Source: Chthoniobacterales bacterium (GTDB lineage: Bacteria > Verrucomicrobiota > Verrucomicrobiia > Chthoniobacterales > Chthoniobacteraceae). From it: 64,000 bases of DNA. Below are positions 44,515 through 64,000 of this stretch, in pieces; the stretch's first letter is position 1; each line of letters opens with the position of its first letter. A program made the translations under genes and the position numbers. The notes below the pieces were generated by a model that was not told the origin of the DNA, did not search any database, and was given only the letters and a program-made list of their open reading frames with translations. Where the stretch lies: contig JBBQZX010000004.1 of the NCBI GenBank assembly GCA_038207335.1, forward strand, positions 170,064-234,063. Reading direction: 5' to 3'.

Positions 44515-45255
44515 ATGAAATTCCTCCTCGCTCTCCTGCTCCTCGCGGGGTCTCTCGCCGCGCGCGCTGCGGATTATCCGCAGCCCACCGGTGCCGATTT
44601 CGCACACACCGCGCCCTACTCCCTCATCGGCCAGCTTCTCTTCTCCAGCGGCGATGGCTATTACAGCGGCACCGGGACCGTCATTCGCCCGAGTTCCGTC
44701 CTCACCGCCGGCCACATCGTCTATGATTTCGATGGCGGATGGTCCACCGACGTCCTTTTCCGCCGCGGGCAATACGGCAGGACCGATCTCTCCGAGCAAT
44801 ACGCCACGCGCCTCTACATCCTCGGCGGATACCGCCGCAGCGTCGTCGCCCACGGTGCCGATGACGTCCGCGCCTTTGCAAACGACATCGGCGGACTCCG
44901 CTTCGCCTCTCCCGTCGCGGATGGAGCCGCTGCTGGGTGGGCCACCGATCGCTCCCTCCTCACCGGGGCCGCCTACAACATCGCACTCGGATACGGCGGC
45001 GAATATCACAGCGGCGACGACCTCCTCGCTGTCGAGCCAAAGGCCGCATTCACCCAAAGCTACGGCCCGTTTTTGGAAAATGAATCCGTCTATTTCGAAT
45101 CCGGCATGAGCGGCGGCCCCGTCTTTGCCCGCGATGCAAAAGGCAACTTCTACATCGCCGGCATCGTCGTTTCCGGCTCAGTCGATCCTGTCGCCGGCGG
45201 CATTCGCGCACTGAATGCGACCGCCTCCGACTTCATCAAACGCTACCTGCGCTAA
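44515..45255 (+). CDS. Secreted trypsin-like (V8-type) serine protease
   Basis: Signal peptide; TAGH, DIG and GMSGGP catalytic triad motifs. Confidence 0.85.
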   Translation: MKFLLALLLLAGSLAARAADYPQPTGADFAHTAPYSLIGQLLFSSGDGYYSGTGTVIRPSSVLTAGHIVYDFDGGWSTDVLFRRGQYGRTDLSEQYATRLYILGGYRRSVVAHGADDVRAFANDIGGLRFASPVADGAAAGWATDRSLLTGAAYNIALGYGGEYHSGDDLLAVEPKAAFTQSYGPFLENESVYFESGMSGGPVFARDAKGNFYIAGIVVSGSVDPVAGGIRALNATASDFIKRYLR

Positions 45256-45272
45256 GTGACGCAAATCTGGTC

Positions 45273-46409
45273 GTGAAAGCTCGCACGGCGGCGCTCCTCG
45301 TCCTCGCGATCCTCACCGGGCTCACCATTGAGCTCATAGTCGCAGGTCTCCGCTCCGCTCCGGAGCAGGTGAAAATCACTCCTCCTGCAAGCCCGCTGCC
45401 CTCCTCTGCCGCTCCCAGCGCGAATTTCTCCACCGTTCGCCCGCCAGTCCAAACGCCCGACAAACCCACCTCCGCGCTGCGCTCCCGGATCGACTCTCTC
45501 CTCGCACGTCTCCAAAAAGGCGAAGCCGGTGCCGCCGACCTTGCCCAACTCGAACGCGAACTTTTCGCCGCCGATCCCGGCTTCGCGATTCGCGCGATCT
45601 TACAATTTCTTGCCACCGGCCAGGACTCCCCGACCAGCGAAATTTTCACGCTTGGCGAAGGCGGAAAACTCACGGGCGCACCGACCCTCCGCGTCGCTCT
45701 CATGGACTGGCTCGGCCGCCTCTCGAAACGAAGCGGCAGCGCCGACGCCGCGCAATTCGCCCGCACCGTTCTCGACGCCAAAACCGCACCTGACGAATGG
45801 GCCGTCTCGCTCCGCAACGTCGCATGGCACGACCCACGCGACTCCGCATACCTCGGAGGCAAATTCCGCGAAATGCTCGGCTACCAGCCGTGGAACGCCC
45901 AGCCCAGTGACGGCATGTTGGAGGCATTCGACGTCGCCGTTTTCACCAAAGACCCCGCGCTCATCCCCGTCCTCGACGCCGCCGCTCGCTCCGGCAAGAG
46001 CGACCTCCAACGCGCTGCCGCAGTCGCGCTCGACCGCCTCGCGGAAGAAGCAGCGCTGCCCGTAATGAATTACCTCAATGCCAACCCGGCGCTCCTCTCC
46101 GACCGCCCTTTCGTCCGCGCCGATTACTTTGCCAAAGCCGACCTCGGACAAACCGGAGAACGGCAGGCGGTGGAAAACTATCTCGAACGCCCGGACATTT
46201 CAGTCGCGGAAAAGGCGAAGATGCTGAAGAGCATCACGACGCCCGCCAGTTTCGTCTCAGACAATCTGCTGACCGCAGCACCCGAGCCCGCCGACGACAC
46301 GGCACGCCTCACCGCCCTCGGAAAAACAACGAAGGAATGGCTGACCACTGGACGCTTTCCCGAACTCACGACGGAACTTCAGCGCCTGCAATACCGCATC
46401 CCGCGCTGA
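45273..46409 (+). CDS. Membrane-anchored alpha-helical hypothetical protein
   Basis: N-terminal TM segment, Pro-rich linker, good codon bias; 17 nt after the protease gene. Confidence 0.7.
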   Translation: MKARTAALLVLAILTGLTIELIVAGLRSAPEQVKITPPASPLPSSAAPSANFSTVRPPVQTPDKPTSALRSRIDSLLARLQKGEAGAADLAQLERELFAADPGFAIRAILQFLATGQDSPTSEIFTLGEGGKLTGAPTLRVALMDWLGRLSKRSGSADAAQFARTVLDAKTAPDEWAVSLRNVAWHDPRDSAYLGGKFREMLGYQPWNAQPSDGMLEAFDVAVFTKDPALIPVLDAAARSGKSDLQRAAAVALDRLAEEAALPVMNYLNANPALLSDRPFVRADYFAKADLGQTGERQAVENYLERPDISVAEKAKMLKSITTPASFVSDNLLTAAPEPADDTARLTALGKTTKEWLTTGRFPELTTELQRLQYRIPR

Positions 46410-46431
46410 CTCTATCAGCCGGTAACGGAGG

Positions 46432-47640
46432 TCACTTCACCACTTGCTGAATCGCGGCACCCAAATCGGCGCGCGCATCCAGCGCCTGCGCCGCCGCCGC
46501 CGAAAACGACGTCACCAAATCCTGCGTCTCCGCCGGATTGTGCGCGGGCTTCGACAGCCAAATCTGCGCCGTCTCGCCGTACTTGATAATCGCCTGCGCA
46601 TACCGTTTCGCCAACGGATCAAGCCGTTCCAGCGCCAGCCGCAACCGCTGCAATTCGCTCACCACCCCCGCCGTCGTCAGGCCCTTCACCTCGTAAGGCC
46701 GAGCCGACTGAATGTTCTTCAACAGCGTCGTCGCAATCCGGTCCACAGCCTCGATCGAGCTTGGCAGACTGAACGTCCTGTAACGCCCCGCGACATGCCC
46801 AAGCAGAAGCCGCGCGGTCATGTGGCTCGGCCATTTCCGCAACGTGAAGCGCAACTGTTCCTGCGTGTCCACCTTCTTCAAAATCGCCTCAGCATCCGCC
46901 CCGGAAGCCGAGAGCGTTTTCTGTACACCGTCGAAAAGCTCGATCGATTTCGCCATGTCCGGGTCGGGCTGCAGCGCCGCCATTTGCAGCACCTCATCGA
47001 AATCTTTCACCGCAAACATCTGCACCCGCCCCGCCCCGACCACCCCTTCATTCACGAGACAATCCGCCGCCTGCGTCACATTTTTCTCCGGCATCAAAAT
47101 GCGCGACGCCGTTCCTCGCGTCGCCGTCGTAAGCCTCATCAGCGCACTCGTCGCCGCCTGCACTTTCCCATCCGGCTGCAAGCCGCCGATGATCGAGCAC
47201 GCGGGATCCGCATTCCATCCCGCGATCATCGAGTCCAGTAGCAACGCCACCGCCAGCGACGCCGCGGGCGCATCGTCCGGCGCGATCTCCGGCTGAAAGC
47301 TCACCTCCACGCGCTGCCCAACCGGCCAGCCATTATGCACGGTCATCATCAGCTTCGTCACCGCGCCGAGCACCGCCTTCCCGCCATCACCGAGCGGCGG
47401 CACGAGCAATATCCCCGCTTGATCCGGTGTCGCCGGCGTCGCCTTTGCCGTGATCGTCACATTCGCGAGAACGTTCACCCCAGCCGCCTGCTTGATATAC
47501 AGCGGCGAGGTCACAACCGCCTTCGGATTCTTGATGGTCGGCGCAGCCGTCTTCTCATCCCCCTCTTTTTCTGGCAAAGCACCTCGGCAAACGAGACCTA
47601 GCCCGATCAGGCAGATGGAGGCAAAAGTGAAAATCTTCAT
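46432..47640 (-). CDS. Secreted protein with degenerate Lon-protease C-terminal (S16)-like domain
   Basis: DDAPAASLAVALLLDSMIAG..SIIGGLQPDGKVQA..ILMPEKN resembles the Lon_C motifs DGPSAG..TGEI...G.V..GG..K. Confidence 0.55.
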   Translation of the reverse strand: MKIFTFASICLIGLGLVCRGALPEKEGDEKTAAPTIKNPKAVVTSPLYIKQAAGVNVLANVTITAKATPATPDQAGILLVPPLGDGGKAVLGAVTKLMMTVHNGWPVGQRVEVSFQPEIAPDDAPAASLAVALLLDSMIAGWNADPACSIIGGLQPDGKVQAATSALMRLTTATRGTASRILMPEKNVTQAADCLVNEGVVGAGRVQMFAVKDFDEVLQMAALQPDPDMAKSIELFDGVQKTLSASGADAEAILKKVDTQEQLRFTLRKWPSHMTARLLLGHVAGRYRTFSLPSSIEAVDRIATTLLKNIQSARPYEVKGLTTAGVVSELQRLRLALERLDPLAKRYAQAIIKYGETAQIWLSKPAHNPAETQDLVTSFSAAAAQALDARADLGAAIQQVVK

Positions 47641-47759: not shown

Positions 47760-49190
47760 TTAGTAACGGTAGTGTTCAGGCTTGTAAGGCCCTTCCACAG
47801 GCACCCCAATGTAATCCGCCTGTCGCTTACTCAGCACCGTGAGTTTCACGCCGATCTTCTCGAGATGAAGTCTCGCGACTTCCTCGTCGAGCTTCTTGGG
47901 CAGGATGTAAACGCCGGGCTTCAAAGTCTCGCGGTTCTTCCAGAGATCGAGCTGCGCGAGCGTCTGATTGCTAAAGGAGTTCGACATCACGAATGAAGGA
48001 TGTCCAGTAGCGCAGCCGAGGTTCACCAAGCGGCCTTCCGCCAGCAGGAAAATCTCGCGCCCATCCGCGAACTGATACTTATCCACCTGTGGCTTGATGT
48101 TGATCCGCTTGACCCCCGGATAGTTGTTCAACTTGTCCACCTGAATCTCATTGTCGAAGTGCCCGATGTTCGCAATGACCGCCTGATTCTTCATCTTGGT
48201 CATGTGCTCGATCGTGATCACATCGACGTTTCCAGTCGTAGTGATGTAGATGTCGCCGCGCCCGAGAGTATCTTCGGTAGTCGTCACTTCGTAGCCTTCC
48301 ATCGCCGCTTGCAGCGCATTGATCGGATCGACTTCCGTCACGATGACCCGCGCACCTTGTCCCCGCAGCGACTGCGCGCAGCCCTTGCCGACATCGCCAT
48401 AGCCAATGACCACCGCGACTTTGCCGGAAATCATGACATCGAGCGCGCGGTTGAGACCATCCACGAGCGAGTGACGGCAGCCGTAAAGGTTGTCAAACTT
48501 CGACTTGGTTACCGAGTCATTCACATTGAACGCTGGCACGAGAAGCTTGCCCGCCTCGTGGAGCTTGTAAAGCCGATGAACGCCGGTTGTCGTCTCCTCC
48601 GACACTCCGCGCCAGTCCTTCACGATCTCATGAAAGATGAATGGATTCTCCGCATGGATCTTCTTGAGCAAGTCCTTGATCACTTGCTCTTCATGAGTCT
48701 CGCTCTCGCCGTTGACCCAGTCGTCTCCTTCTTCCAGCTCGTAGCCTTTGTGCAGGAAGAGAGTCACGTCGCCACCATCATCGACCACCAACTCCGGGCC
48801 CTTGCCATCGCCGCCGACGATCGCATTCCAGGTGCAATCCCAATACTCCTCCAGGCTCTCGCCTTTCCAGGCAAACACCGGCACACCCGCAGCAGCGATC
48901 GCCGCCGCCGCATGATCCTGCGTCGAGAAAATGTTGCAGCTCGCCCAGCGCACCGTCGCGCCGAGGTCCACCAGCGTCTCGATCAGGACAGCCGTCTGAA
49001 TCGTCATGTGCAGCGACCCAGTGATCCGCACGCCTTCGAGCGGCTTGCCATCGGCATACTTGCCGCGGATTGACATGAGACCGGGCATCTCCTGCTCGGC
49101 GATCTCGATTTCCTTGCGGCCCCAGTCGGCGAGGTTGATGTCGGCGACTTTGAAGTCGGTGTTTTTGGCGGTCAGGGTGTTGGTGCTCAT
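47760..49190 (-). CDS. ahcY: S-adenosylhomocysteine hydrolase
   Basis: [54 protein letters not shown]. Confidence 0.98.
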
Positions 49191-49324: not shown

Positions 49325-49352
49325 TGATCCTTTTCATCGCGGAATCTCGCAT
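49325..49352 (+). promoter_or_regulatory. Putative ECF-sigma promoter, copy 1
   Basis: TGATCC-ttttca-N11-CGCAT-N11-ATG; identical geometry at 57357. Confidence 0.55.
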
Positions 49353-49363
49353 GAACGGATGAT

Positions 49364-52300
49364 ATGAACCCGCACGTGCCGCCCCCACCGCCACCCCAGC
49401 GTCCCTCCGGTCCGCCCAGACTGCCGATGCGTCTGCCGGTAGATGTCCGCGTTGAGGCCACCTTCAACTCCGCGCTGCAGCGACCGGTCGCGGAGCGCGA
49501 GGCTTTCATCGCGGAGGCTTGTGGGGAGGAAGGCGAGATGCTCATCGAAGTGCGGGCATTGCTCGCGGCGCACGATGCCGCAGGTGATTTCCTCGAGGAA
49601 CCGCGGATGACGCCCGAGATCGAGGAGCAGATGGCGCGGCTGAAGCCGGAGGAGGCAGGCGAGATGATCGGGCCTTACAAATTGCTGGAGCCGCTCGGCG
49701 AGGGTGGCTTTGGCACCGTGTGGATGGCGGAGCAGGAGGTGCCGGTGCGGCGGCGCGTGGCGTTGAAGATCATCAAGATGGGCATGGATACGAAGGAGGT
49801 CATCGCGCGCTTTCAGCAGGAGGAGCAGGCGCTCGCGATGATGGATCATCCGAACATCGCGAAGGTTTTCGATGCGGGGGCGACGCAGTTTGGACGGCCG
49901 TATTTCGTGATGGAATTGGTGCGCGGCATCCCGATCACGCACTACTGCGACCAGCACAAGCTGCCGACGGTGGAGCGGCTGCGGCTGTTCATCGCGGTCT
50001 GCCATGCGCTCCAGCACGCGCACCAAAAGGGGATCATCCACCGCGACATCAAGCCCAACAACGTCCTCGTCACGATGCACGATGGCGGCGCGGTGCCGAA
50101 GGTCATCGACTTCGGCGTGGCGAAGGCGACGCAGCAGCGGCTCACGGACCTGACGGTGTTCACGCAGTTTGAGCAGATGATCGGGACGCCGCTCTACATG
50201 TCGCCCGAGCAGGCGGAAATGAGCGGGCTGGATGTGGATACGCGCAGCGACATTTATTCGCTCGGTGTCGTGCTCTACGAACTGCTCACGGGCCGCACGC
50301 CGTTCGACGCGGAGGAGCTGATGCGGCGCGGCTACGATGAAATCCGAAAGATGATCCGCGAGCAGGAGCCGCCGAAGCCTTCGACGGCGCTCTCGACGAT
50401 GGCGCGCGACGCGGCGACGGATGTGGCGCAGCACCGGCAATCCGAGCCACCGAAGCTGGCCAGGCTGATCCGCGGCGATCTCGACTGGATCGTGATGAAG
50501 GCGCTCGAAAAAGATCGCAGCCGCCGCTACGAGACGGCGAACGGCTTCGCGCTGGACATCGAGCGGCATCTCGCTGGCGAACCGATCATCGCGCGTCCGC
50601 CAACCACGCTCTACCGGCTGGACCGGATGGTGCGGCGCAACAAGCTCGCCTTCAGCGCGGCGGCGGGCGTGCTGCTGGCGCTGATCGCCGGCGCGGGGTT
50701 CAGCCTGTGGCAGGCGCGCGAGGCGGAGCGTGAAGCAGCACGAGCCAGCGAGGCGCTCCTTGATTTGCAAAAGACGGCGCCGGCGTTCGCCGAGCAGGCG
50801 CGGACGATGGCGGCGCGCGAGGAGTTCGCCGAGGCGCTGGAGAAGCTCGATACCGCGGCGAAGCTGCGGCCCGACGAGGCGGAGTATCGCGTCGCGCGCG
50901 GCGATCTTTTGCAGTGCCAGCTCCGGCTCGCGGAAGCGGTGGCGGAGTATCGCGGGGCGCTGGCGATCGCGCCGGAGCATCCGCGGGCGAAGACGAATGC
51001 CGAGCTGTGCGACCGCTTGCTCGCGACGAATGCCGATCCGACGAAGCTCACACCGGAGAGCCTGCGCGAACTCGCCGATTCGCTGGAGCGCGAGCATCGC
51101 CCCGCGGCGCAGCGGCTCGCGGTGGCGCGCCGGCTCGGCGAGGAAAAGAAGGTGCTGCTCGACTACTGGATCGAGCGGCTCGCGGACCTGCCGCTGCCGC
51201 CGGAGCGTCCGCTCGCCGAGCGCCTGACGCTGCGCGCGGACGGTCTGCTCGCGCTCGATTTGCAAGGCACCCGCCTCACCGATCTCTCCGCGCTGGAAGG
51301 CGTGCCGCTCGGCGAGATCAACGCCACCGGCTGCACGGAACTCCAGGACTTGCAGCCGCTCCGCGCGCTGCCGCTCACCGAATTGCGTCTCGCCAGTTCC
51401 GGTGTCACCGATCTCGCGCCGCTCAGCGGCCTGCGCACACTGAAGACACTCGATCTCGGCAGCACCGCCGTGCGCGATCTCACCGGGCTTCAAGGGCTGC
51501 CGCTCGCGCACCTATCGCTGAATGATGCGAGGTCCGTCAGCGATCTCACGCCGCTGCGCGGGATGCCGCTGCAAGATATTTACCTCAACTACACCGGCGT
51601 CACCGATCTCGCGCCGCTGGCGGGAATGCCGCTCACGCACTTCTGGGCCACCAACCTCTCCGCCACCGACTGCTCGCCACTCACCGGATGCCCGCTGGAG
51701 GCCTGCGCGCTCAATGGGACGAAAGTGACCGACCTCGGGTTCCTGAAAAATGCGCCGTTGCGCAAACTCGATCTCACCGACAGCCCGGACGCCCGAAATT
51801 TCGCGGCCATCGCCGGCTGCCAGACGCTCGAAAGCATCAAGCTGCCCGCGACCGCGCTCAATCTCCCGGTCGCGGACCTCGATGCCATCACCGCGCTGCG
51901 CGATCTCCCGGCGCTGAAGACCGTCGTGGCTGGTCAAAGCGCGCAGAAGGGGCCGATCGCGGCAGATTCGAGCGCGGAGTTTTGGAAAAAGTGGGACTTG
52001 CTCATCACCGTCGCGAGGCCACTGCGCGCGGCGGGCTGCACCGTGAACGCGCGCGTGCTCGATGACGGCACGTTGTCCGTGGGCCTCCTCAACCAACCGA
52101 TTAGCGATCTTTCAATTCTCGAAGGCACGCCGATCAGCCGACTCGCCGTGCAGTCCACCAAGGTCAGCGACCTCCGCCCCGTGCGGACGATGAAGCTCAC
52201 CTTTTTGGACCTGTGGGACACACCGGTCACGGACCTTAGCCCGCTCCGCGGCTTGCCCCTGACTTCCCTCAACCTTGGCGCGACGAACGTGACCGACCTT

Positions 52301-54289
52301 TCGCCGCTGGAAGGCATGCCTCTGGCCGACTTCTTTGCGGACCGTGCCCCGTTCACGGACTATGCGCCGCTCGCCAAAAGCCCGACGCTCAAAAACATTC
52401 ACCTGCCGCGGCCGATGCCAGGCGCGCCTCCGCTGAACCTCGAACCGCTGCGCAGCCTGCCGAACCTCGAACGAATCTCGTTTCAATATGACTGGAGCAC
52501 CGGCCCGATCTGCACGGCGAAAGTTTTCTGGGCGCACTGGGATGGCCTCGGCTGGATGCGCGCGTTGCAGGATGGGCAGTTCAATTTCACCGCGGAGCAA
52601 CTGGCCGACGGACGGTGGAAGGTGCTGACGGGCGGCCGGTTCAGCGATTGCTCGATTTTCAAAGGCGCAGCCATCGCTATTTTACTGGTTGGTCCAAGCG
52701 TCGTGGACCTCAGCCCACTGCGCGATCTGCCGCTTGAGGAGCTCGATGCCGGGCGGTCGCAGGTGGCGGACATATCCACCTTGCGAGGATCGACGCTCCT
52801 CCGTTCTCTGAAATCGTTTTCCCTTTATGGGACGAAGGTCACCGATTTCTCGCCATTGGCGGAATGTGTGAATGTGAAATGGCTCAACCTCTGCCGGACG
52901 GCAGTGCGGGACGTCGGCTTTCTCCGCGGACTCAAAGTCTGCACGGGGGTGGGCCTCACTGGCACTGAGGTTTCCGACATCTCGCCGCTCAGCGAAATGC
53001 CGGAACTGCGCAGGATCTACCTTCCGCAAGGAGCGCGGGAGGTGGAAAAGCTCCGCCAATTGTCCAACCTGCGCGTGCTCTCCTACGACTACGAAGGGCA
53101 GCCGAAGCAAACCGCGGAGGAATTCTGGCAGATGCACGACGAAGTGCCGTGGGTGGCAAAACTGAAGGCCGAGGGGATCAACCCGACCGTCGAGCGCCGC
53201 GAGGACGGGCTTTGGAGCGTGGACCTGGAAAAACAGCCCATCACCGACCTCACTCCGCTGCGCGGTTCACGCATCTGGTATCTGGACCTCCGGGACACGC
53301 CGGTTGCCGACCTCGAACCGCTGCGCGGGATGCCGCTGGAGATTTTGTGGGTGGGCGGAACAAAGGTCACCGACCTCGCGCCGCTCGCCGGAATGCGGCT
53401 CAAGTGGCTGCATGCGGCGAACACAAAGGTGGCGGATATCAGCGTCCTGCGCGGGATGCCGCTGGAGCAAATCGCCATGGGCGGCGGCGTGCCGGTGGAC
53501 CTCGCGCCGCTGCACGAAATGGACACGCTCGAGCTCGTGAATTTCGCGCGGGGTTCGACCAACATCGAGGGCCTGCGCCGACTGCCGAAGGTCAGGACAA
53601 TCAGCTACGACTATGACAACGAGAACAAACGCTTCAAAACGACCGCCGCCGAATTCTGGCAGTTGCACGACGAAGTGCCGTGGGTGGCGGAACTGAAGGC
53701 CAAGGGGATCACCGCGACCGTCAAGCGCCGCGAAGATGGGCTTTGGAGCGTGGATCTCCAAAAGCAGCCCATCACCGACCTCACTCCGCTGCGCGGTTCA
53801 CGCATCCGGTATCTGGACCTCCGGGACACGCCGGTTGCCGACCTCGAACCCCTGCGCGGGATGCCGCTCACTTACATCAACGTCAACAACACCCCCGTCA
53901 CCGATCTCTCTCCGTTGCGCGGAATGCCGCTTAAGGCCGTCGACATGATCGGATCGAAAGTCACGGACATCACGCCGCTGGCGGGGATGAAACTCAATGT
54001 CCTGAACATCAGCAGCACGCCCGTTAAAGACATCAGCGTCGTGCGCGACATGCCGCTGAAGTGGTTTTACATGCGCGACGGCAGCCCGGACACCGACATT
54101 ACGCCGCTTGCGAATATCAGTTCTCTCACAGAGGTGAACATTCCTCGAGGCGTAAAAGACGTCGAGGTGCTGAGAAGCCTCCCGAAGGTAAGGCGATTCG
54201 GCTACAGTTGGGTCGGCGGCGGCGACGGCCAGATCGACACCAGTTGGGAGGAATTCTGGGCGGAGTTTGACCGCAAGAAGAAGCCATGA
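49364..54289 (+). CDS. Membrane Ser/Thr kinase K1: polyPro leader, kinase, TM, TPR-like region, five LRR modules
   Basis: [55 protein letters not shown]; about 21-aa repeats [20 protein letters not shown]. Confidence 0.93.
53120..53868 (+). repeat. Near-identical intragenic direct repeat (53120-53337 and 53651-53868; offset 531 bp)
   Basis: Both copies encode EFWQ(M/L)[61 protein letters not shown]; roughly 90% nucleotide identity by eye. Confidence 0.9.
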
Positions 54290-57117
54290 CGCCGCCACCA
54301 CCACCACCGCCGCCCGGCTTGCCGCGTCCACCTTCGCCACCACCGCGTCCGCCGATCCTGCGGGTCGATTCGCCGATGCTCAAACAGGAGGAGGCGGGCG
54401 ACCGCATCGGGCGTTACAAATTGCTCCAGCAGATCGGCGAAGGTGGCTTCGGCGTGGTCTGGATGGCCGAGCAGGAGAAGCCGGTGCGGCGGCGCGTGGC
54501 GCTGAAGGTGATCAAGCTCGGCATGGATACGAAGCAGGTCATCGCGCGCTTCGAGGCCGAGCGACAGGCGCTGGCGATGATGGATCACCCGAACATCGCG
54601 AAGGTGCTCGATGCCGGCGCGACGCAGACCGGGCGGCCCTTTTTCGTCATGGAACTCGTGCGCGGCATCCGCATCACGGACTTCTGCGACCAGAGCAAAC
54701 TGTCCGCGGCGGACCGGCTCGGGCTTTTCGTCAGCGTCTGCCATGCGGTGCAGCACGCGCATCAAAAAGGGATCATCCACCGCGACCTCAAGCCCTCGAA
54801 CATCCTCGTGACGCTGCACGACGGCGTGCCGGTGCCGAAGGTCATCGACTTCGGCGTGGCCAAGGCGACGCAGCAGCGGCTCACCGACCTCACGCTCTTC
54901 ACGCAGTTCGATCAAATGATCGGCACGCCGCTCTACATGTCGCCCGAGCAGGCCGAGATGAGCGGGCTGGATGTCGATACGCGCACGGACATCTATTCGC
55001 TCGGCGTGCTGCTCTACGAATTGCTCACCGGGCGCACGCCGTTCGATGCGACGGAATTGACGCGCCGCGGCATCGACGAAATGCGCCGGGCCATCCGCGA
55101 GACGGACCCGCCGAAGCCTTCGACGCGCTTCGGCACGCTCGCCGCCGAGGCGCGTTCGACCGTGGCCAATCAACGCCAGGCCGAGCCGGCGAAACTCGCG
55201 GGACTGCTGCGCGGCGACCTCGACTGGGTGGTGATGAAGGCGCTCGAAAAAGACCGCACGCGCCGCTACGAGACGGCGAACGGGATGGCGATGGACGTGC
55301 AGCGTTTCCTGAGCAACGAGCCAGTCGTCGCGCGTCCGCCGAGCAGTGCGTATCGGCTGCAAAAGTTCATGCGCCGCAACAAGCTCGCCGTCGCCGCCGC
55401 AGCCGCCGTGGCGCTCGCGCTCATCGCCGCGATCACGGCAGGCGTGTGGCAGGGAATGCGCGCCGGGCGCGAAAAGGCAAAGGCCACCGCCGCGGTCGCC
55501 AAGCTCCGCGACACCGCGCCGGCCTTCGCGGACCAGGCGCGCGCGCTGGCGGCGCGAGGGCAGTTCGACGAGGCGATCGACAAGCTCGCCTTCGCCGCGC
55601 GCCTGCGGCCCGACGTGGCGGATTACGTCGCGCGGCAGGGTGACCTCCGCGAGAGCCAGCTCCGCCTCGCGGAAGCCGGCGAGGCCTATCGTGTCGCGCT
55701 GAAGATTGCGTCCGATCATCCGCGGGCCAAAGCGAACGCCGCGCTCTGCGAACGCCTGCTTGCGCTGAAGCCCGACATTGCGAAGCCCTCGCTCGAAGTG
55801 CTCGCGCGGCTTTTCGCCACGATGCAACGAGAACAGCGTTCCGCTGGCGAGCAGGCGCCCGTGGCGAAGCGTTTCGCCGAGGAAAAGCAGCGCGTGCTCG
55901 ATGAGTGGCTTCCGCGTTTCGCCGGCATGCCGGTCCCTGCGAACAAGCCGATCGCAGAGCGGGTGGGCTTCGGCGAAGATGGGAGCCTCACGCTCGACCT
56001 CAACGGCAGCACCACCACCGACCTCGCCCCGCTCCGGGGTGCGCCGCTCAGCAGCCTGAACCTCACTTGGTGCGCGAACGTCACCGACCTTGCCCCGCTC
56101 GCCGGCACGCGCCTCCGTGAACTCAATATGTTTGGAACTCCCGCGCAGGACTACACGCCGCTGACGGGGGCGCCGCTGGAGACTTTCACCGCCGGCGCGA
56201 AGCTGGACGATCTGTCGTTCCTGCGCGGTGCGCCGCTGCGCACGCTGCGGATCAGCGGGGGGCCGCTCCCGCGGAATCTCGCCGTGCTGGCGGAGATCAA
56301 AACGCTCGAGACCCTGTTCCTGCCGCCCAATCTCCGCAAGCTGCCCGCCGCCGAACTCGCGGCGTTCGAGAGGCTGCGCACGCATCCCGCGCTGCGGGAA
56401 ATCCGGATCGCTTCGGCTCCCGGCGAAAGAACTGACCTTGCGCTGCCTAAAGAGCAGTTCTGGCGCGAGTGGGACGCCAGCCAAACCGCCGCCGCGCTGC
56501 CCCGGCCGGCCAAAGAGTCGGTGAGCCAGCCCGCAGAGAGCATCCCGGCGTTGAAAGTGGCCGCGTTGCAGGTTTGGTTCAGCAAGGACACCGAGCATGT
56601 CGCCACCCGTCAGCGCATGCTCGCGTGGGCCGAGGGCTCCGAGAAACCCGACGATCTCGAGCGCGCCGCCAAGATCTGCTGCCTGCGCCCGATCGACGAT
56701 GCTTCCCTTCGAGAAGCCGCCCTCAACCTTGCCCGCAAGGCGGTGACGCTCGGCAAAGAGAAACCGGAAAGTTTGGCCTGGTATCACATGACTCTGGGCA
56801 TGGCCGAATACCGCAGTGGACGTTACGCGGAAGCCATCGAGACGCTGACCGCCGCCGAAGCAGTGACGGCAGAAACCTGGCACCCGGAGATCGTGCGCAG
56901 CACCGCCAGCTTCTACCGAGCCATGAGCCTCTTCCAGCAGGGCAAGCCCGACGACGCCCGCGCACTCCTGACGGCCACCGAGGCCGCGATGAAACCCCTC
57001 CCCACCGACGAAAAAAACCCGCTCACCAACGGTGCCGACCACGACGACCTCATCCTCTGGCTGGCCTGCAAGGAGGCCCGCACGCTGCTCGCGGCGCCGG
57101 GCGAGGCGGGGAAGTAG
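54286..57117 (+). CDS. Membrane Ser/Thr kinase K2: polyPro leader, kinase, TM, one LRR module, C-terminal TPR-like domain
   Basis: [31 protein letters not shown] overlap with K1; tail [30 protein letters not shown]. Confidence 0.93.
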
Positions 57118-57180
57118 CGCCAGCGTCCATCCATTTCACCACTCCGAGCACGGCGGCGCGGCGCCGCAAAGGAGGGTCGC

Positions 57181-57294
57181 TATGATTGCGCCCCTCTCAA
57201 CGCCGCCAACTGGCTTCAAGGCGGTGAAGGAGCCTGGTATGCCTGGTTCATCGCCGACCTGCTCACGAAAGAAGCCGCGGCATCGATCAAGTGA
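57181..57294 (+). pseudogene. Orphan fragment resembling a kinase C-terminal tip
   Basis: ..PLNAANWLQGGEGAWYAWFIADLLTKEAAASIK* parallels the K2 end ([21 protein letters not shown]); no in-frame start codon. Confidence 0.45.
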
Positions 57295-57356
57295 CCGCCT
57301 CGGCTGCGGAGCGCGCGTTCGTTTCCGGGATTTTCTGGCGGCGAGCGAAAATTCGG

Positions 57357-57384
57357 TGATCCTTTTCAACGCCGGATTGCGCAT
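57357..57384 (+). promoter_or_regulatory. Putative ECF-sigma promoter, copy 2
   Basis: TGATCC-ttttca-N11-CGCAT-N11-ATG upstream of K3. Confidence 0.55.
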
Positions 57385-57395
57385 GGGCAGTTGAG

Positions 57396-60300
57396 ATGAA
57401 TACTCCGCCCATGGTTCCGCCGCAGCCGCCGCAGCCGCCGCAACGGCCAGGAACACCGCCGGGGCCTCCGCGGCCACCTTCGGTCGCGCGCGCGACGAAG
57501 GCGGAGGCGACGTTCAATTCCGCGCTCGCGCGGCCCGCCGAACAGCGCGCGGCCTTTGTCGCCGAAGCCTGTGCGGGGGACTCGGCGCTAGATGCGGAGG
57601 TGCAGGCATTGCTCGCGGCGCACGATGGCGCCGGCGGTTTCATGACGGATGACGTGCCGCTTTCGCCGGAGATCGAGGAGCAACTGGCGCGGCTCAAGCC
57701 GGAGGAAGCAGGCGAGAGCATAGGGCCGTACAAGCTGCGCGAGCAGATTGGCGAGGGTGGCTTTGGTACGGTGTGGGTGGCGGATCAGGAGCGGCCGGTG
57801 CGGCGGCGGGTGGCGTTGAAGATCATCAAGCTGGGGATGGACACGAAGGAGGTGATCGCGCGCTTCGAGCAGGAGCGGCAGGCGCTGGCGATGATGGATC
57901 ACCCGAACATCGCCAAGGTGCTCGATGCCGGCGCGACGCAGTATGGGCGGCCGTTCTTCGTCATGGAGCTGGTGCGCGGGGTGAGGATCACGGACTACTG
58001 CGACGACCAGCAGCTCTCGACGGTGGAGCGCATCGGGCTGTTCATCACCGTCTGCCAGGCGGTGCAACACGCGCATCAAAAAGGGATCATCCATCGCGAT
58101 CTGAAGCCGTCGAACATCCTCGTGACGATCAACGACGGCGAGGCGGTGCCGAAGGTGATCGACTTCGGTGTGGCGAAGGCGACGCAGGGACGGCTCACCG
58201 ACGCGACGGTCTATACGCAGTTCCAGCAGATGATCGGCACGCCGCTCTACATGTCTCCGGAGCAGGCGGAGCTGACTTCGCTGGACATCGACACGCGCAG
58301 CGACATCTACGCGCTCGGCGTGCTGCTTTACGAACTGCTCACCGGCCACACGCCGATCGAGCAGGACACGATGGCCCGCGTCGGCATGGATGAAATGCGG
58401 CGCATGATCCGCGAGGTCGATCCGCCGCGGCCCTCGATGCGCGTGAAGACGCTCGACGGCGCGGAACTCACGACCGCCGCGAAGCGCCGCCACACCGATC
58501 CCGCGCGACTGCCCGGCGCGCTGCGGGGGGACATTGATTGGATCGTGATGAAGTGCCTGGAGAAGGATCGCAAGCGCCGCTACGACACGGCCAACGGCCT
58601 CGCGCTCGATCTCCAGCGGCATCTCAAAAACGAAGTGGTCGTCGCGCGCCCGCCGACCGCCGGCTATCTGCTCAGCAAGCTCATCAAGCGTAATAAGTCG
58701 GCGGTGGCCGCCGCTTCCGCGGTGGTGCTCGCGTTGATCGTCGGCTTTGCCGTCGCCGTCTGGCAGGCCAAGCGTGCGCAGAATGAGGCGGCGCGAGCGC
58801 AGACGGCGGAGCAGCGCTCGGCGGCGGCGCTGGAGGAACTCCGCGAGACCGCCCCGGCCTTTGCCTCGCAGGCGCGCTCGCTCGCGGCGAAGGACCGCTT
58901 CGACGAGGCCATCGAGAAGCTCGACTACGCCATCAAGCTGCGGCCCGAAGTGGCGGAGTATCTCGTGGTGAAAGCGGACCTGCTCCAGTGCCAGCCGAAG
59001 CTCGCCAAAGCCGCCGAGGTTTATCGCGAAGCCTTGCGCGTGAAGCCCGGCGTCGCCCGCGCCGAGGCGTCCGCGAAGCTCTGCGACGAACTGCTCGCCG
59101 CGCCAACCACCGATCAGGGCAAACTCACCCGCGAGACCCTCGCGAAGCTTCATCTCGCGATGCAAAAGCAGCAGCGGCCCGCAGCGGAGTTGATGCCCGT
59201 GGCGCGGTTGCTCGGCGAGGAGAAGAAGCTCGTCGTCGAATACTGGCTCGCGCGCTTCAAAGACCTGCCCGTCTCCGCCGAGAAGCCGCTCAAGGATCGC
59301 CTCACCGTCCGCGACGACGGCCGACTCGCGCTCGATCTCAGCGGCACGAAGGTCACCGATCTCTCGCCGCTGGCGGGTGCACCGCTGGCGGTGCTGAATG
59401 TGTCGGGCACGAAAGAGCAGAGTGAGTTGGCCGATCTCTCCCCATTGCGCGGGATCGATCTGGTCGAGTTGGACATCAGAAGCACGAGCGTCGCAGACCT
59501 CACGCCTTTGCGCGAAATGCGCGGGCTCAGGAAGCTCGACGTGGGTGCCACCAAGGTGACCGACCTCGCACCGCTGAGCGATCTGCGGCTGGAGGAGCTC
59601 GACCTCACGGAAACGCGGATCTTCGACCTCGCGGCGTTGCGCGGGATGAAGTTGAAAGAACTCAGCCTCCGGGAGACTCGCGTGGCAGACCTTTCGCCGC
59701 TCGCCGGCATGCCGCTGACCGCTTTCGATGCCTCGACGATTCCCGCCACCGACTACTCGCCACGACGGGCGCTCCGCTGGAGAAGTGCTATATCCTAAAC
59801 TCGCCGGTGCGCGACCTTTCCTTCCTTCGGGACTCATCGGTGAAGGAATTGATTCTCTACGAGTGCAACGAGCTGCGCGGATACTCCGTGCTGGCCGGGT
59901 TGAAGTCACTCGACCTCCTCGTTCTCCCGCAGAGCTTTCGCAGTCTGCCCGAGGAGGATCTGGCGGCCATCGGCGCGCTCCGCAGCCATCCGACGCTTAG
60001 GAATATCCAGACGGAATACCGGAGCGGCAATTGGTTCTTCAACACCACCCAGCCGAAGGAGACTTTCTGGCAGGATTGGGATCGCGAGCAGAGCTTCGTC
60101 CCCGCGCTGCGCAAGAGCGGGATCAAGTTCTCGCTCAAAAAGCTCCCGGTCGGGACTTATTCCTTTCGATTCAGAACCAGCCGTTGAGCGATCTCTCGAT
60201 GCTGAAAGGCGCGCCGATCAGCGAGCTTTACCTCAGCAAATGCAAGTTCGCCGACCTGGCGCCGATCCACGACCTGAAGCTCGAAATCCTGCACCTCACC

Positions 60301-62085
60301 AGCGATCTCGTCACCGATCTCAGTCCGCTGCGCGGGATGCCGCTCAACACCTTGTTTTTGAGTGGCACGAAGATCAGCGATCTCTCCCCGCTGCCCGGTC
60401 TGCCGCTCCGGGAACTCTACCTCGAAGCCTGCCCCGGCGTCGCCGACCTCACCCTGCTCGCGCAGATTCCCACGCTGGAAAAACTCACCGTGCCCGTGCA
60501 GGCCGCGAACATCAACGCCCTGCGCAAGCTGCCCGCCCTCCAGATGCTCGACGTCCGTCGCAACGACACCACCCTCCAGCCCGCCTCCACCGCCGCAGCG
60601 TTTTGGAAGCTGCGCGACGCGAATCCATGGATCGCCCTGCTCCGAGACTCCGGCATCAAGACAAAGGCACTGCGAGCCGCGGATGACGGCACTTTTGAGT
60701 TGGACCTCAGCAACACACCCATCACCGACCTCACGCCGCTCAAAGGCGCGCCGATCAGCAAGCTGTGGATCAACGACACCGCCGTGTCCGATCTGGAACC
60801 GCTGCGTGGCCTGCCGCTCAAGAGGCTCTTCGCCGGCAACACCCGCGTCACCGATCTCGCGCCGCTGCGCGGAATGCCGATCATCGAGCTTACCCTCAAC
60901 GGAACCCGCATCAGCGACCTCAGTCCGCTGCACGGGATGCCCCTGGAATCTCTCATTATCGGCGGCACCGACGTCGCCGATTTGGAACCGCTGCGCGGCA
61001 TGGCGATCAAGCGCCTCATCTTCTACGATACGAAGATCACCGACCTCCGTCCGCTCCAGGGAATGCCGCTCGAAGAACTGTCATTGGGCAAAGTAAGCGA
61101 CCTCTCCATCTTGCGCGGTATGCCGCTGCGGAGCCTGCGACTCCATGAGTGCCCCGAAGAGACAGACCTCTCGCCGCTCGCCGAATCAAAGGAACTCACC
61201 AGCCTCACGCTGCCGGCTGGCGCGAAGCGCCTCGAAGTCCTCCGCACTTTGCCCAAGCTCAGCCGCATCGGCTTCAAGGAAGATTGGAAAAACGGCGGCC
61301 GCCCCGACCAGACCGCCGAGGAGTTTTGGAAGGAATACGATGCGAAGTCGTGGTTGGAGCCGCTGCGTGCGGCAGGCGTCACGATCAAGAGCAGCAAGCA
61401 ACTGCCCGACGGCACCTGGGAGCTGGACCTGACCGCGGCGAAGCTCAGCGACCTCGCGCTCCTGAAAGGCACGCGGGTCAGCAAACTGAACCTCAGCAAA
61501 ACCGCCGTCACCGACCTGGCACCGCTGCGCGGCCTGCCACTCAAGACGTTGAACCTCGAGGAGACGCCGGTTTCCGACCTTCGCCCGCTCGCAGGCATGC
61601 CGTTGGAAGATTTGAACCTGATGAAGACAAGAGTCTCCGACGTGTCGCCCTTGAAGGGGTTGCTCCTCAGGAATCTCCAGCTCAACAACACCGCCGTCGC
61701 CAATCTGGAACCGCTGCGCGGCATGCCGCTGAAAGACCTCGCCATCCCCAATACGAAGGTAATTGCCCTGCAGCCGCTCAAGGACACGCCGTTGGAGGTC
61801 CTGACCCTGAGTTACACCGATGTGACCGACATTTCCGTCCTGCATGGAATGCCCCTGAGAACACTGAAGCTGATTGATTGCTCCAAACTAATCGACCTTA
61901 CGCCCCTCGCTACGGCCAAAGGACTCACCGAACTCGGCCTGCCGCCGAACGCCAAGGACATCGAATTCCTGCGGGACTTCCCCAAGCTCAAGCGCCTGAG
62001 CTACGCGGTGGATCCGAACAACGGCTGGCGCGCCGACAAGACCGCCACGGAGTTTTGGAAGGAATACGACGCGAAGAAGAAATAG
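57396..62085 (+). CDS. Membrane Ser/Thr kinase K3 with four LRR modules (about 1560 aa); split by two 1-nt deletions
   Basis: Track ORFs 57396-59798, 59807-60187 and 60031-62085 join seamlessly if one base is added at about 59763 ([26 protein letters not shown]) and one at about 60163 (GTYS-L-SIQNQPLSDLS). Confidence 0.85.
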
Positions 62086-62220
62086 GCGTGGCTCCTCGAA
62101 GCAATCCAGCGGGGCGAAAAATAGTCTGTGTGGGCGTGTGGGATTTGGTCGCCGCGGGCTGCGCGAGCATCAGGAATGAACACGGTGTGATTGAATGCGC
62201 GCCCAGTCACGCTGGCGCGA

Positions 62221-62351
62221 GGTAGGGACGGCTGTCCCAGCCGTTCGTCGACGAGCGGTTCGAGGCCATCCTCTACAGTACGATCGAAGAACGACGTCGG
62301 ACCGGTTTGCCGAGGCTCGCCGGGCGGACGGCTCGGAGAGCCGTCCCTACC
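62221..62351. repeat. REPIN-like inverted pair of GTAG-type REP palindromes
   Basis: GGTAGGGACGGCT-GTCCC-AGCCGTTCG and, on the opposite strand, GGTAGGGACGGCT-CTCCG-AGCCGTCCG, about 75 nt apart. Confidence 0.75.
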
Positions 62352-62488
62352 GCGCTGGCGCGCCAACGCGGACCCGACTTCAACCACACCCGAATGAACA
62401 CGCCGGCCGCCGGGCTGCTTGACCCACCTGCCTCGATTTTGTTGTCATCGAAGCCGCAGTCATTGCAGCCGCAAATTTACCCTGTCTG

Positions 62489-64000
62489 ATGGACAACAAT
62501 CAGGATCGCGAATCGACCGAGCCTGTGCAGTCCAACAGCCGCTGGGGACGGGCGACATCTGATGCCGGTGACGACCGCCGCGAGGCGCTGAGCGAACTGG
62601 CGGCGAGTTACTACTACTGCGTTTATGCCTGGTGGCGGCGTTCGGGGCGCGAAGCGGAAGCCGCAGCTACGGCGACGCTCGCCTTTTTCGACCGTTGGCT
62701 CAGCGAGTCGCCGCCGCAGCGAACGGACTCGGGCGTCGAGCGGATGCGCACTTGGCTCTTGGAGCGGCTGGCCGAGCTTTCGGGGGAAACGCTGGAGACT
62801 CCCGTCGAGCCGCCGCTTGCGTTGGACCCAGCTTGGGCGGAAGCGCGGTACGCGGATGAACCGCCCGGCGAAGCGGACGCCATCTTTCAGCGCCGCTGGG
62901 CGCTCACGGTGCTGGAGTTCACCGTGGCGACGATGCGCGCGGAATACACGGCGCGCGGCGAAGAGGCGCTCTTTCCCGAACTCGTGCCCTTCGCCGGATA
63001 CGACTCGGGCGAAGAGGATCGCTACCTCGGCGCCGCGGATCGCACCGGGCTCACCGTCGGCGCGATGCACAAGGAGGTCTTCGATTTCCGCCACCGGCAG
63101 CGCGAGCTGCTGCTCTATTTTGCCGGCGATACGCTGCTCGATCCGGCGGAGGCGACGAGCGAGATCACCGCGCTGCTCTGCGCCTGCGATGCTCCGGGAC
63201 CGGAGGCGGCAACGGCGCGACTCCCGACGGAGATTGCCAATGTGCATCCGGATGAAATGCTCGCGCGCGCCATGCAGAGCGTGCGCATGACCGGCGGCGG
63301 CGCGGCGGGCTGGCACCCGCCCACGGTCGCGGAAGCGGCGCGCCTTTTTCCCCAGTATGAAGTGAGTGCGCTGCTCGGGCGCGGCGGCATGGGCGCCGTT
63401 TACCGGGGGCGCCAGGTGGAGCTCGACCGCCCGGTCGCGATCAAGCTCCTGCCGCTGGAGGTGAGCGTGGATCGCGACTTCGCCGACCGTTTCCGCCGCG
63501 AGGCCCGCGCCATGGCCCGGCTCCAGCATCCGAACATCATCGACGTTTACGACTTCGGCACGACCTCCGAGGGGCATCTCTTTTTCGTCATGGAGTATGT
63601 CGAGGGGACGAACCTCGACGCGCTGATCCGCGGGCCGGGCCTCGCGCCGGCGCAGGCGCTCCAGATCGTGAGCAGCGTCTGCGAGGCGCTCGCCTACGCG
63701 CACGCGGAGGGCGTGGTGCATCGCGACATCAAGCCGGCCAATGTGATGGTGAGCACGAAGGGCAAGGTGAAGGTCGCCGACTTCGGGCTCGCGCAGCTCA
63801 GCGATGCCACCGCCGAACAGCTCGGCCACACCGTCACCGGCACGGTCATGGGCACGCCGGATTACATGGCACCGGAGCAAAAGCGCGGGATGCACGTCGA
63901 TCACCGCGCGGACATCTACAGCCTCGGCGTGATGCTCTACGAAATGCTCTGCCGCGAAGTGCCGCAGGGCATCTTCGATCCGCCGAGCCACCGCGTGGCC
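62489..64000 (+). CDS. ECF sigma-factor-like domain fused to a Ser/Thr kinase; partial, runs off the right edge
   Basis: Not in the ORF track. Manual translation is open from ATG 62489: REALSELAASYYYCVYAWWRR (sigma2-like), IFQRRWALTVL..YLGAADRTGLTVGAMHKEVFDFRHR (sigma4-like), then LLGRGGMGAVY, VAIK, HRDIKPAN, DFG, GTPDYMAPE. Confidence 0.85.
   Translation, partial: MDNNQDRESTEPVQSNSRWGRATSDAGDDRREALSELAASYYYCVYAWWRRSGREAEAAATATLAFFDRWLSESPPQRTDSGVERMRTWLLERLAELSGETLETPVEPPLALDPAWAEARYADEPPGEADAIFQRRWALTVLEFTVATMRAEYTARGEEALFPELVPFAGYDSGEEDRYLGAADRTGLTVGAMHKEVFDFRHRQRELLLYFAGDTLLDPAEATSEITALLCACDAPGPEAATARLPTEIANVHPDEMLARAMQSVRMTGGGAAGWHPPTVAEAARLFPQYEVSALLGRGGMGAVYRGRQVELDRPVAIKLLPLEVSVDRDFADRFRREARAMARLQHPNIIDVYDFGTTSEGHLFFVMEYVEGTNLDALIRGPGLAPAQALQIVSSVCEALAYAHAEGVVHRDIKPANVMVSTKGKVKVADFGLAQLSDATAEQLGHTVTGTVMGTPDYMAPEQKRGMHVDHRADIYSLGVMLYEMLCREVPQGIFDPPSHRVA

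Follow-up and report, generated by a model that had tools for sequence, protein, structure and literature searches.

Tandem PknS-type kinases with modular leucine-rich repeat ectodomains in a Chthoniobacterales bacterium and their likely link to ECF43-type sigma factors

The activation of an alternative sigma factor by a transmembrane Ser/Thr kinase has been described for Xanthomonas citri, in which PknS phosphorylates the extracytoplasmic function (ECF) sigma factor EcfK of group ECF43, leading to anti-amoeba defence (PMC13147305), and for the pair PknT-EcfP of Vibrio parahaemolyticus. According to the sections of the reports consulted here, ECF43 sigma factors have no acidic DAED motif and are activated by Thr phosphorylation at this place (PMC8999054, PMC7826278), kinases linked to ECF43 have already been noted to carry a variety of ectodomains (PMC13147305, with reference to Iyer 2020), and the sensed input is open even for PknS (PMC13147305, Discussion). 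Bacteria of the Planctomycetota-Verrucomicrobiota-Chlamydiota (PVC) group possess Ser/Thr kinases with a cytoplasmic kinase domain, one transmembrane (TM) helix and a periplasmic array of tetratricopeptide repeats (TPR) or WD40 repeats, for which the parts of PMC11032199 available to us also report lineage-specific paralogues and domain swapping. The signalling logic, the PVC kinases with periplasmic repeats and the variety of ECF43-kinase ectodomains are already known. Here we analysed a stretch of 64,000 nucleotides (nt; the window) that forms the terminal part of contig C4 (JBBQZX010000004.1, positions 170,064 to 234,063) in the assembly GCA_038207335.1 (G000; 5.17 Mb, 94.7% complete) of a Chthoniobacterales bacterium, and in it an array of three receptor-like kinase genes with leucine-rich repeat (LRR) ectodomains (genes 1-3), followed by a kinase fused to a sigma-like domain (gene 4).

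The array is real: three paralogous kinase genes lie on the same strand, with starts at 49364, 54286 and 57396. The similar kinase, single TM helix and TPR-like stalk that the preliminary description of the window had assigned to them were all recovered, the kinase domains being 71-76% identical to each other (the next kinase in the genome reaches 45%) and the stalks of about 160 amino acids (aa) 51-52%. The features are as follows.

49364..54289, + strand: gene 1, 1641 aa; extension, PknS-type Ser/Thr kinase, TM helix, TPR-like stalk and five capped LRR modules
49445-49648, + strand: N-terminal helical extension of gene 1
49658-50608, + strand: kinase domain of gene 1
50645-50710, + strand: TM helix of gene 1, from hydropathy
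50726-51199, + strand: TPR-like stalk of gene 1
51200-52003, 52004-52549, 52550-53146, 53147-53677 and 53678-54286, + strand: LRR modules 1 to 5 of gene 1
54286..57117, + strand: gene 2, 943 aa, its start overlapping the stop of gene 1
54397-55347, + strand: kinase of gene 2, followed by TM helix (55384-55449), stalk, LRR module (55942-56481) and C-terminal TPR module (56518-57114)
57396..62085, + strand: gene 3, in three frames; extension, kinase (57711-58658), TM helix (58698-58763), stalk and four LRR modules

The N-terminal helical extension is present in genes 1 and 3 and absent from gene 2. All six catalytic motifs of a Hanks-type kinase are intact in genes 1-4 (PF00069, 148-178 bits). 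Each kinase is followed by a single hydrophobic helix (Kyte-Doolittle hydropathy 2.1-2.7) behind a basic R-R-N-K stretch; a second, weak peak (1.92) of gene 1 falls within an LRR strand, and a TM helix was detected in 113 of 114 relatives. Given this hydropathy and the charge around the helix (four to five Lys/Arg before, three to four after), the LRR ectodomains are predicted to lie outside the cytoplasm, in the periplasm. The stalk is all-helical in an AlphaFold2 model, with TPR profile matches below or near the cut-off. An LRR module begins with a helix and a hairpin, continues as a short run of 21-22-residue repeats and ends in an 'FW' cap helix. The initial counts of five modules for gene 1, four for gene 3 and, for gene 2, a single one joined by a TPR module hold for the capped modules; the reading of gene 3 as one open reading frame (ORF) does not. 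For the stalk and three modules the mean predicted local distance difference test (pLDDT) score was 94. The top structural match was that of the first LRR module to InlF (4fmz; Z 22.6, root-mean-square deviation (rmsd) 4.3, 267 aligned residues), and matches over the whole length of the ectodomain model had an rmsd of 12-18.

The cytoplasmic part of gene 1 has its best PDB match in Xanthomonas PknS (9EED, 204 bits, residues 29-402, the extension included), above the 149 bits of its match to PknB. Sequence comparison places the kinases of genes 1-3 in the PknS clade, which has a free-standing sigma factor of the ECF43 type as its partner. In 79 related loci, taken from a genome scan of 10 of 64 parts of the collection, such a sigma factor, recognised by a local profile, was encoded within the fetched flanks in 63. 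Four of four sigmas tested scored above the TIGR02999 cut-off, four of four reached 168-187 bits on PF07638, and Thr occupies motif position 3 in 74 of 74 parsed copies. Among 150 family genomes, a count in which kin are non-independent and many genomes incomplete, the sigma was found in 37 of 43 with this kinase type versus eight of 107 without it. Complex prediction for the gene 1 kinase, with a sigma factor from another genome as a stand-in, gave a weak pass (0.51 versus 0.22 for the best control; partner pLDDT 53-61; runs agreeing in at least 40% of contacts). In the calibration, the pass mark was reached by 51 of 78 solved and two of 108 mismatched pairs, and scores of at most 0.60 comprised five of the 78 solved pairs and all four passing mismatches; by this calibration, a score like 0.51 is more often wrong than right unless the pairing is likely beforehand. 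As a separate observation, C18:55558-56826(-) of the same genome encodes a protein that has the PknS-type N-terminal helical extension, lacks a kinase and continues with a hydrophobic helix and then a coiled-coil-like stretch; it is possibly a decoy or an anti-sigma-like partner.

Motif discovery was performed on 93 upstream regions, none of which came from this genome. A bipartite promoter-like motif of the type TGATCCTTTT-N13-CGCATG was present in 57 of the 93 training regions, with a log-likelihood of 490 versus 106-110 in three shuffles. The two top sites of the genome studied here are located about 9 nt upstream of the starts of genes 1 and 3.

49325..49354, + strand: promoter-like motif before gene 1, score 22.2, the genome's best site
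57357..57386, + strand: promoter-like motif before gene 3, score 20.6, the genome's second-best site

With a threshold score of at least 12, the motif preceded eight of nine held-out kinases that were fetched later (13 examined, four training duplicates dropped). It was seen before four of 56 other kinase ORFs, namely two pieces of one broken kinase of the genes 1-3 type and two gene 4-type fusions in genome G108; random stretches drawn from these loci held it in 15 of 3000 cases. Kinases follow 43 of the 72 motif sites in related loci; 12 of the 16 non-kinase products scanned had Pfam hits, mostly of exported beta-propeller, FG-GAP, PEP-CTERM, Ig-like, TPR and pilin-type proteins. The 17-nt spacing appears to fit an ECF promoter, and from the co-location we infer that the motif is read by the ECF43-type sigma factor. 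For proteobacterial ECF43, a different motif, GTC/CAG, is predicted in the portions of the classification consulted (PMC7826278).

At least 885 relatives of the stalk-LRR ectodomain were found (7999 candidates scored); those with names belong to Verrucomicrobiota and Planctomycetota, and JGI labels them as kinase or LRR proteins. Of the top 120 relatives, 83 have a kinase with at least 60% identity to that of gene 1, while in 34 the kinase is more distant or partial; the number of caps ranges from about one to seven. The comparison across genomes that had been proposed, conserved kinase versus variable LRR, gave the expected picture: in close orthologues of gene 1 the kinase is 88-94% and the modules are 53-84% identical, with four or five modules. 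In orthologue comparisons, exposed concave LRR positions were identical in 199 of 455 cases (44%) versus 268 of 366 (73%) for convex ones; after correction for the identity between unrelated repeats the values were 36% (concave), 62% (convex) and 41% (core). The concave side was the less conserved in all seven comparisons (six of gene 1, one of gene 3), six of them with p<0.01, although gene 1 is common to six, which are therefore non-independent, and gene 2 has no scorable repeats and stands outside the count. Concave positions include Trp, Tyr and Phe. Among these orthologues the concave face is the least conserved surface, as one would expect if it binds a ligand. Metagenome scans yielded no DNA from close orthologues of gene 1 or gene 3, and family genomes reached at most 75-84% on parts. 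Two kinds of ectodomain relatives may be mentioned for themselves. A PDZ domain is inserted in the first LRR module of three close gene 1 relatives (P0053, P0057 and P0059). FHA-type kinases of another clade with the stalk and LRR ectodomain, and an LRR-module protein without a kinase, occur in a second cluster in the present genome (C4:62920-65790(-), C25:39928-42720(-) and C4:65667-69200(-)).

The history of the kinases appears to be old. In a kinase tree of 41 rows, each of genes 1-3 groups with orthologues from outside, gene 3 in a separate clade with 100/100 support, and a recent tandem triplication was rejected on this basis; by their sequences, the three kinases are older lineages and no fresh local expansion. 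Two orthologues have the same architecture as gene 2 (kinase 98%, LRR 82%, TPR 80-82%), and eight of the 79 loci contain this kinase type in tandem. The only recent duplication seen among parts of the array is inside gene 1, at the starts of LRR modules 4 and 5 (53111-53337 versus 53642-53868, 92% over 227 nt). Of the variable repertoire on a constant chassis that had been suggested for the array, the constant kinase, TM helix and stalk and the concave variation are borne out; the tree and the orthologues elsewhere with the same architecture weigh against a fast local diversification.

Compared with the known systems, as far as the consulted parts of the sources go, genes 1-3 share with PknS-EcfK and PknT-EcfP the kinase clade, the N-terminal extension (in genes 1 and 3), one TM helix and extracytoplasmic TPR (PMC13147305, PMC8999054, PMC7826278) and, in related loci, an adjacent Sigma70_ECF-type sigma that carries Thr where DAED would stand. 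Unlike PknS and PknT, the present family has an ectodomain extended by one to seven separately capped LRR modules, its hosts are Verrucomicrobiota and Planctomycetota (the 2021 classification, in the portions consulted, lists ECF43 in Proteobacteria only, PMC7826278), several kinases occur per locus, the predicted targets are exported surface proteins and kinases, and the sigma factor is missing from this assembly. In contrast to the PVC kinases with TPR or WD40 arrays, which agree in kinase, TM helix and repeat array, LRRs are present, which the main text of PMC11032199 does not mention, and a sigma partner and a promoter can be proposed, neither of which is assigned there. Plant LRR receptor kinases, of which FLS2, RGFR1 and GSO1 were among the fold hits, also combine an LRR ectodomain, one TM helix and a Ser/Thr kinase, and have a variable concave surface. 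However, the order here is kinase-TM-LRR with no N-terminal ectodomain, the kinase is bacterial, and several short capped solenoids, nearer to internalin and Roco types, replace the single plant superhelix. The inverted order noted at the outset is correct, and the plant resemblance is an analogy, not a homology. Literature searches, made mostly without subscription papers, brought up no account of the modular family of LRR kinases, of the promoter motif or of the degenerate sigma-like fusions discussed below, and Iyer 2020 may list LRRs. The initial impression that the arrangement had no known account thus holds for the LRR family in the literature searched; it does not for varied ECF43-kinase ectodomains as such, which the consulted text of PMC13147305 already covers.

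Taken together, we hypothesize that genes 1-3 encode single-pass PknS-clade receptor kinases with periplasmic LRR chains that activate an ECF43-type sigma factor by phosphorylation, which we regard as likely; the architecture, catalytic motifs, clade, neighbourhood in relatives, upstream motif and faster change of the concave face are documented. A ligand, most likely a protein or peptide, would bind the concave LRR faces in the periplasm and trigger autophosphorylation of the kinase, which would then phosphorylate the Thr of the Q-x-T-A motif of the sigma factor. The phosphorylated sigma would transcribe the kinase genes themselves via the motif, a positive feedback, as well as nearby genes for exported surface proteins. 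The circuit of the present genome is probably incomplete, with no sigma assembled, a probable relic after gene 3 and a frameshifted gene 3; gene 4 is a neighbour from a second family. The precedent of PknS is the sole basis on which a biotic signal is suggested as the input. A wider idea, that the PVC family acts as pattern-recognition receptors whose diversifying concave faces detect proteins of predators, competitors or phages in the periplasm, with surface remodelling through ECF43 feedback, birth-and-death turnover and pseudo-sigma fusions that tune the circuit, is speculative and in our opinion doubtful. Since the family combines confidently modelled modular ectodomains that have a marked variable face with a predicted promoter and a specific candidate residue for phosphorylation, input, switch and output are separately testable; if the ligands are biotic, LRR receptor-kinase surveillance would have been invented independently in bacteria.

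Several observations weigh against the proposed signalling to an ECF43-type sigma. The kinase type occurs without the sigma in six of 43 genomes, and the same stalk and LRR ectodomain is found on unrelated FHA-type kinases without an ECF43 link; therefore, the ectodomain is not tied to an ECF43 output. No TIGR02999 sigma gene, and hence no copy of the proposed substrate, is present in this assembly. Only one of 69 sigma genes has the motif in front of it, and a factor other than the ECF43-type sigma could be the one that reads it. The genome has only one further strong motif site, the third-best (C12:73265(-), score 18.5), with no ORF of more than 60 aa starting behind it. Finally, the topology was derived from hydropathy and charge, with no topology predictor.

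The place of the missing sigma can be judged from syntenic genomes: in G108 it directly precedes an orthologue of gene 4 (84% identical), whereas in G128 and G100 it follows the gene 4 orthologue, which in G128 is itself preceded by an LRR kinase. A short stretch directly after the stop of gene 3 resembles such a gene.

62086..62124, + strand: probable relic of an ECF43-type sigma gene (its 3' end), 39 nt, 12 codons and a stop

It matches the 3' end of the G108 sigma gene, which occupies the syntenic place (locus L140), in 29 of 35 nt, a score reached by one of 2000 shuffles and two of 3000 random stretches. The match was found post hoc and the letters also weakly resemble the 5' end of other such sigma genes, and we therefore grade the relic as only probable. 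An intact copy may exist in unassembled DNA, plausibly past the end of C4, which lies 1.9 kb from the relic. Gene 4 stops at 504 aa where window and contig end together, and no contig that continues C4 was found.

Gene 3 changes frame near 59763 and near 60170, its first frame ending after 800 aa, and over the three frames it is collinear with the intact 1554-aa orthologue P0062 (79%, 87% and 71% identity). Of 69 control matches in this genome, none had a frame change; stops were seen in 12, nine of them opposite a long ORF and three unresolved. At least six of 28 related stalk-bearing genes are broken. Gene 3 would be a pseudogene or an assembly error, and the control together with the breaks in relatives favours true decay.

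The setting of the array bears on the same question.

47760..49190, - strand: ahcY, left flank of the array, beside which same-genus genomes carry metK at the place of the array

In eight of eight same-genus loci (L173-L180), metK lies at most 1 kb upstream of ahcY and no array is present; here the array takes the place of metK. A kinase of the genes 1-3 type occurs in only one of 10 genus relatives. Both metK and its ArsR-methyltransferase neighbour are absent from this assembly, and some DNA is therefore unassembled, plausibly just beyond the end of C4.

Gene 4 had been taken for a sigma-kinase fusion that serves as the output of the array.

62489..64000, + strand: gene 4, cut by the contig end; ECF-like domain at 62531-63190, kinase from 63356

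The ECF homology is clear, with an hhalign probability of 99.4% over 216 columns against canonical ECF sigmas, 32% identity to the L014 sigma (E 6e-22), Sigma70_r2 in 12-41% of the members of Atlas neighbours, and a model with two helical lobes (pLDDT about 90); matches in fold searches with gene 4 came from the kinase part. An intact sigma factor is not supported: the first 234 residues had no match in Pfam, NCBIfam and PDB sequence searches, and with AAAT at 62660-62671 versus DAQD in canonical relatives, the domain retains sigma2 and sigma4 homology and lacks the acidic DxxD core-binding motif. In 62 degenerate copies, Asp or Glu stands at motif position 4 in three (seven of seven canonical ones) and at position 1 in 13, and Ser or Thr at position 4 in 31 and at position 3 in four. 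Moreover, a segment is deleted at the end of the first lobe and HRLR of the second lobe is changed to FDFR; we take this segment and the basic helix of the second lobe to serve promoter recognition. Gene 4 as an ECF43 sigma was rejected, as it has no PF07638 or TIGR02999 match and no Thr at motif position 3. Its kinase belongs to another clade (about 41% identical to genes 1-3). Of the proposed ECF output, the link to a phosphorylation-activated ECF stands, through the PknS clade and the sigma genes of related loci; gene 4 in that role does not.

Of the 49 longer relatives of the gene 4 domain, 48 match at E <1e-42, nearly all with a kinase, and the C-termini of the fusions vary (FGE-sulfatase, lectin, DUF1080, LRR). 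At E 1e-20 the domain is matched in 60 of 151 family genomes, stand-alone and canonical forms counted in. In complete relatives the kinase is followed by a hydrophobic helix, and canonical ones are long ECFs encoded beside TM kinases, which by description only recall the kinase-associated ECF59 and ECF217 and the membrane-tethered ECF57 (consulted part of the supplement of PMC7826278). Unlike these, the gene 4 domain is fused to the N-terminus of a kinase and has lost the acidic motif, and the group descriptions consulted contain no such fusion (PMC7826278). On balance, the domain is probably a pseudo-sigma regulatory domain; a phospho-activated sigma is rather unlikely. Most likely it serves its own kinase in regulation or docking and takes no part in transcription. 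The degenerate sigma-kinase fusions, of which 48 proteins were found, represent a second architecture with no description in the literature searched. Similar proteins were noted elsewhere: a degenerate sigma-like domain fused to a kinase with an FGE-sulfatase-like C-terminus (C1:245446-248163(+)) and a stand-alone degenerate domain just before a kinase (C15:94109-94804(+)) in G000, a stand-alone subfamily of 10 sequences that kept the first acidic residue and lost the second (L130-L138), and tandem sigma-like-kinase fusions with differing C-termini in other family genomes (L144, L145, L148 and L140).

An alternative to a free sigma factor is that the LRR kinases signal through the gene 4 domain, in which a phospho-Thr would replace the acidic motif and which would act as a sigma after release from the membrane. 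Its ECF homology and two-lobe fold would fit, as would the Ser/Thr at the fourth motif position in half of the copies, the orthologues that neighbour an LRR kinase (G128) or an ECF43 sigma (G108, G128 and G100), and the promoter motif before two such fusions in G108. We nevertheless consider this improbable, since the acidic residue is almost always lost and the Thr only half conserved, the ECF43 site is rarely Ser or Thr, the lobe segment and the basic helix are altered, the helix after the kinase likely tethers the fused domain to the membrane, most fusions lie away from LRR kinases, with the motif absent from 22 of 24, and the gene 4 fusion has its own kinase and ectodomain. Signalling to an ECF43-type sigma, the reading preferred here, is compatible in its ancestral form with the possibility that the locus of this genome is a decaying, recently inserted accessory island, in which the sigma is deleted, gene 3 a pseudogene and genes 1 and 2 orphan or silent. 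The relic at the syntenic position speaks for such a decay, as do the two frame changes of gene 3 and the broken relatives, the patchy occurrence in the genus and the empty ahcY sites, and the fact that the site equivalent to the G108 promoter before gene 4 scores -3.5 and is followed by an inverted repeat. However, metK and its neighbour are unassembled too, plausibly past the end of C4, at the position that the sigma has in G128 and G100; both promoters are intact, as are all catalytic motifs, and the breaks in gene 3 could be assembly errors. We rate this decay as not quite an even chance.

The ectodomains could also be structural spacers or envelope-stress sensors without a specific ligand, the concave variation then reflecting relaxed constraint. 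The module number of about one to seven is what a length-tuned spacer would lead one to expect, and the corrected core identity is near that of the concave face, but the exposed convex side is better conserved than the concave one throughout, aromatic residues occur among the concave positions, and the closest folds are ligand-binding LRRs, which makes a mere spacer quite unlikely. That the kinases are anti-phage abortive-infection effectors is very improbable: the PADLOC kinase profiles PD-T4-6 and MAD6 do match, but only in the generic kinase domain, the scores for NCBIfam MAD6 are far under the cut-off, and the receptor architecture and the sigma linkage fit signalling.

Some minor features of the window remain to be listed. 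No Rfam family was matched in the 64 kb. To the left of ahcY (44515-47640), a secreted trypsin-like protease, a 378-aa protein without a Pfam match and a Lon_C-like protein are encoded. Between relic and gene 4 lies an inverted repeat, which we take to be REP-like.

62217..62355, no strand assigned: inverted repeat with 31-nt arms, between 11-nt direct repeat copies at 62174 and 62392

The 11-nt direct repeats that flank it (62174-62402) contain an ATG in each copy, and one partial copy is present elsewhere in the genome, at C2:38102.

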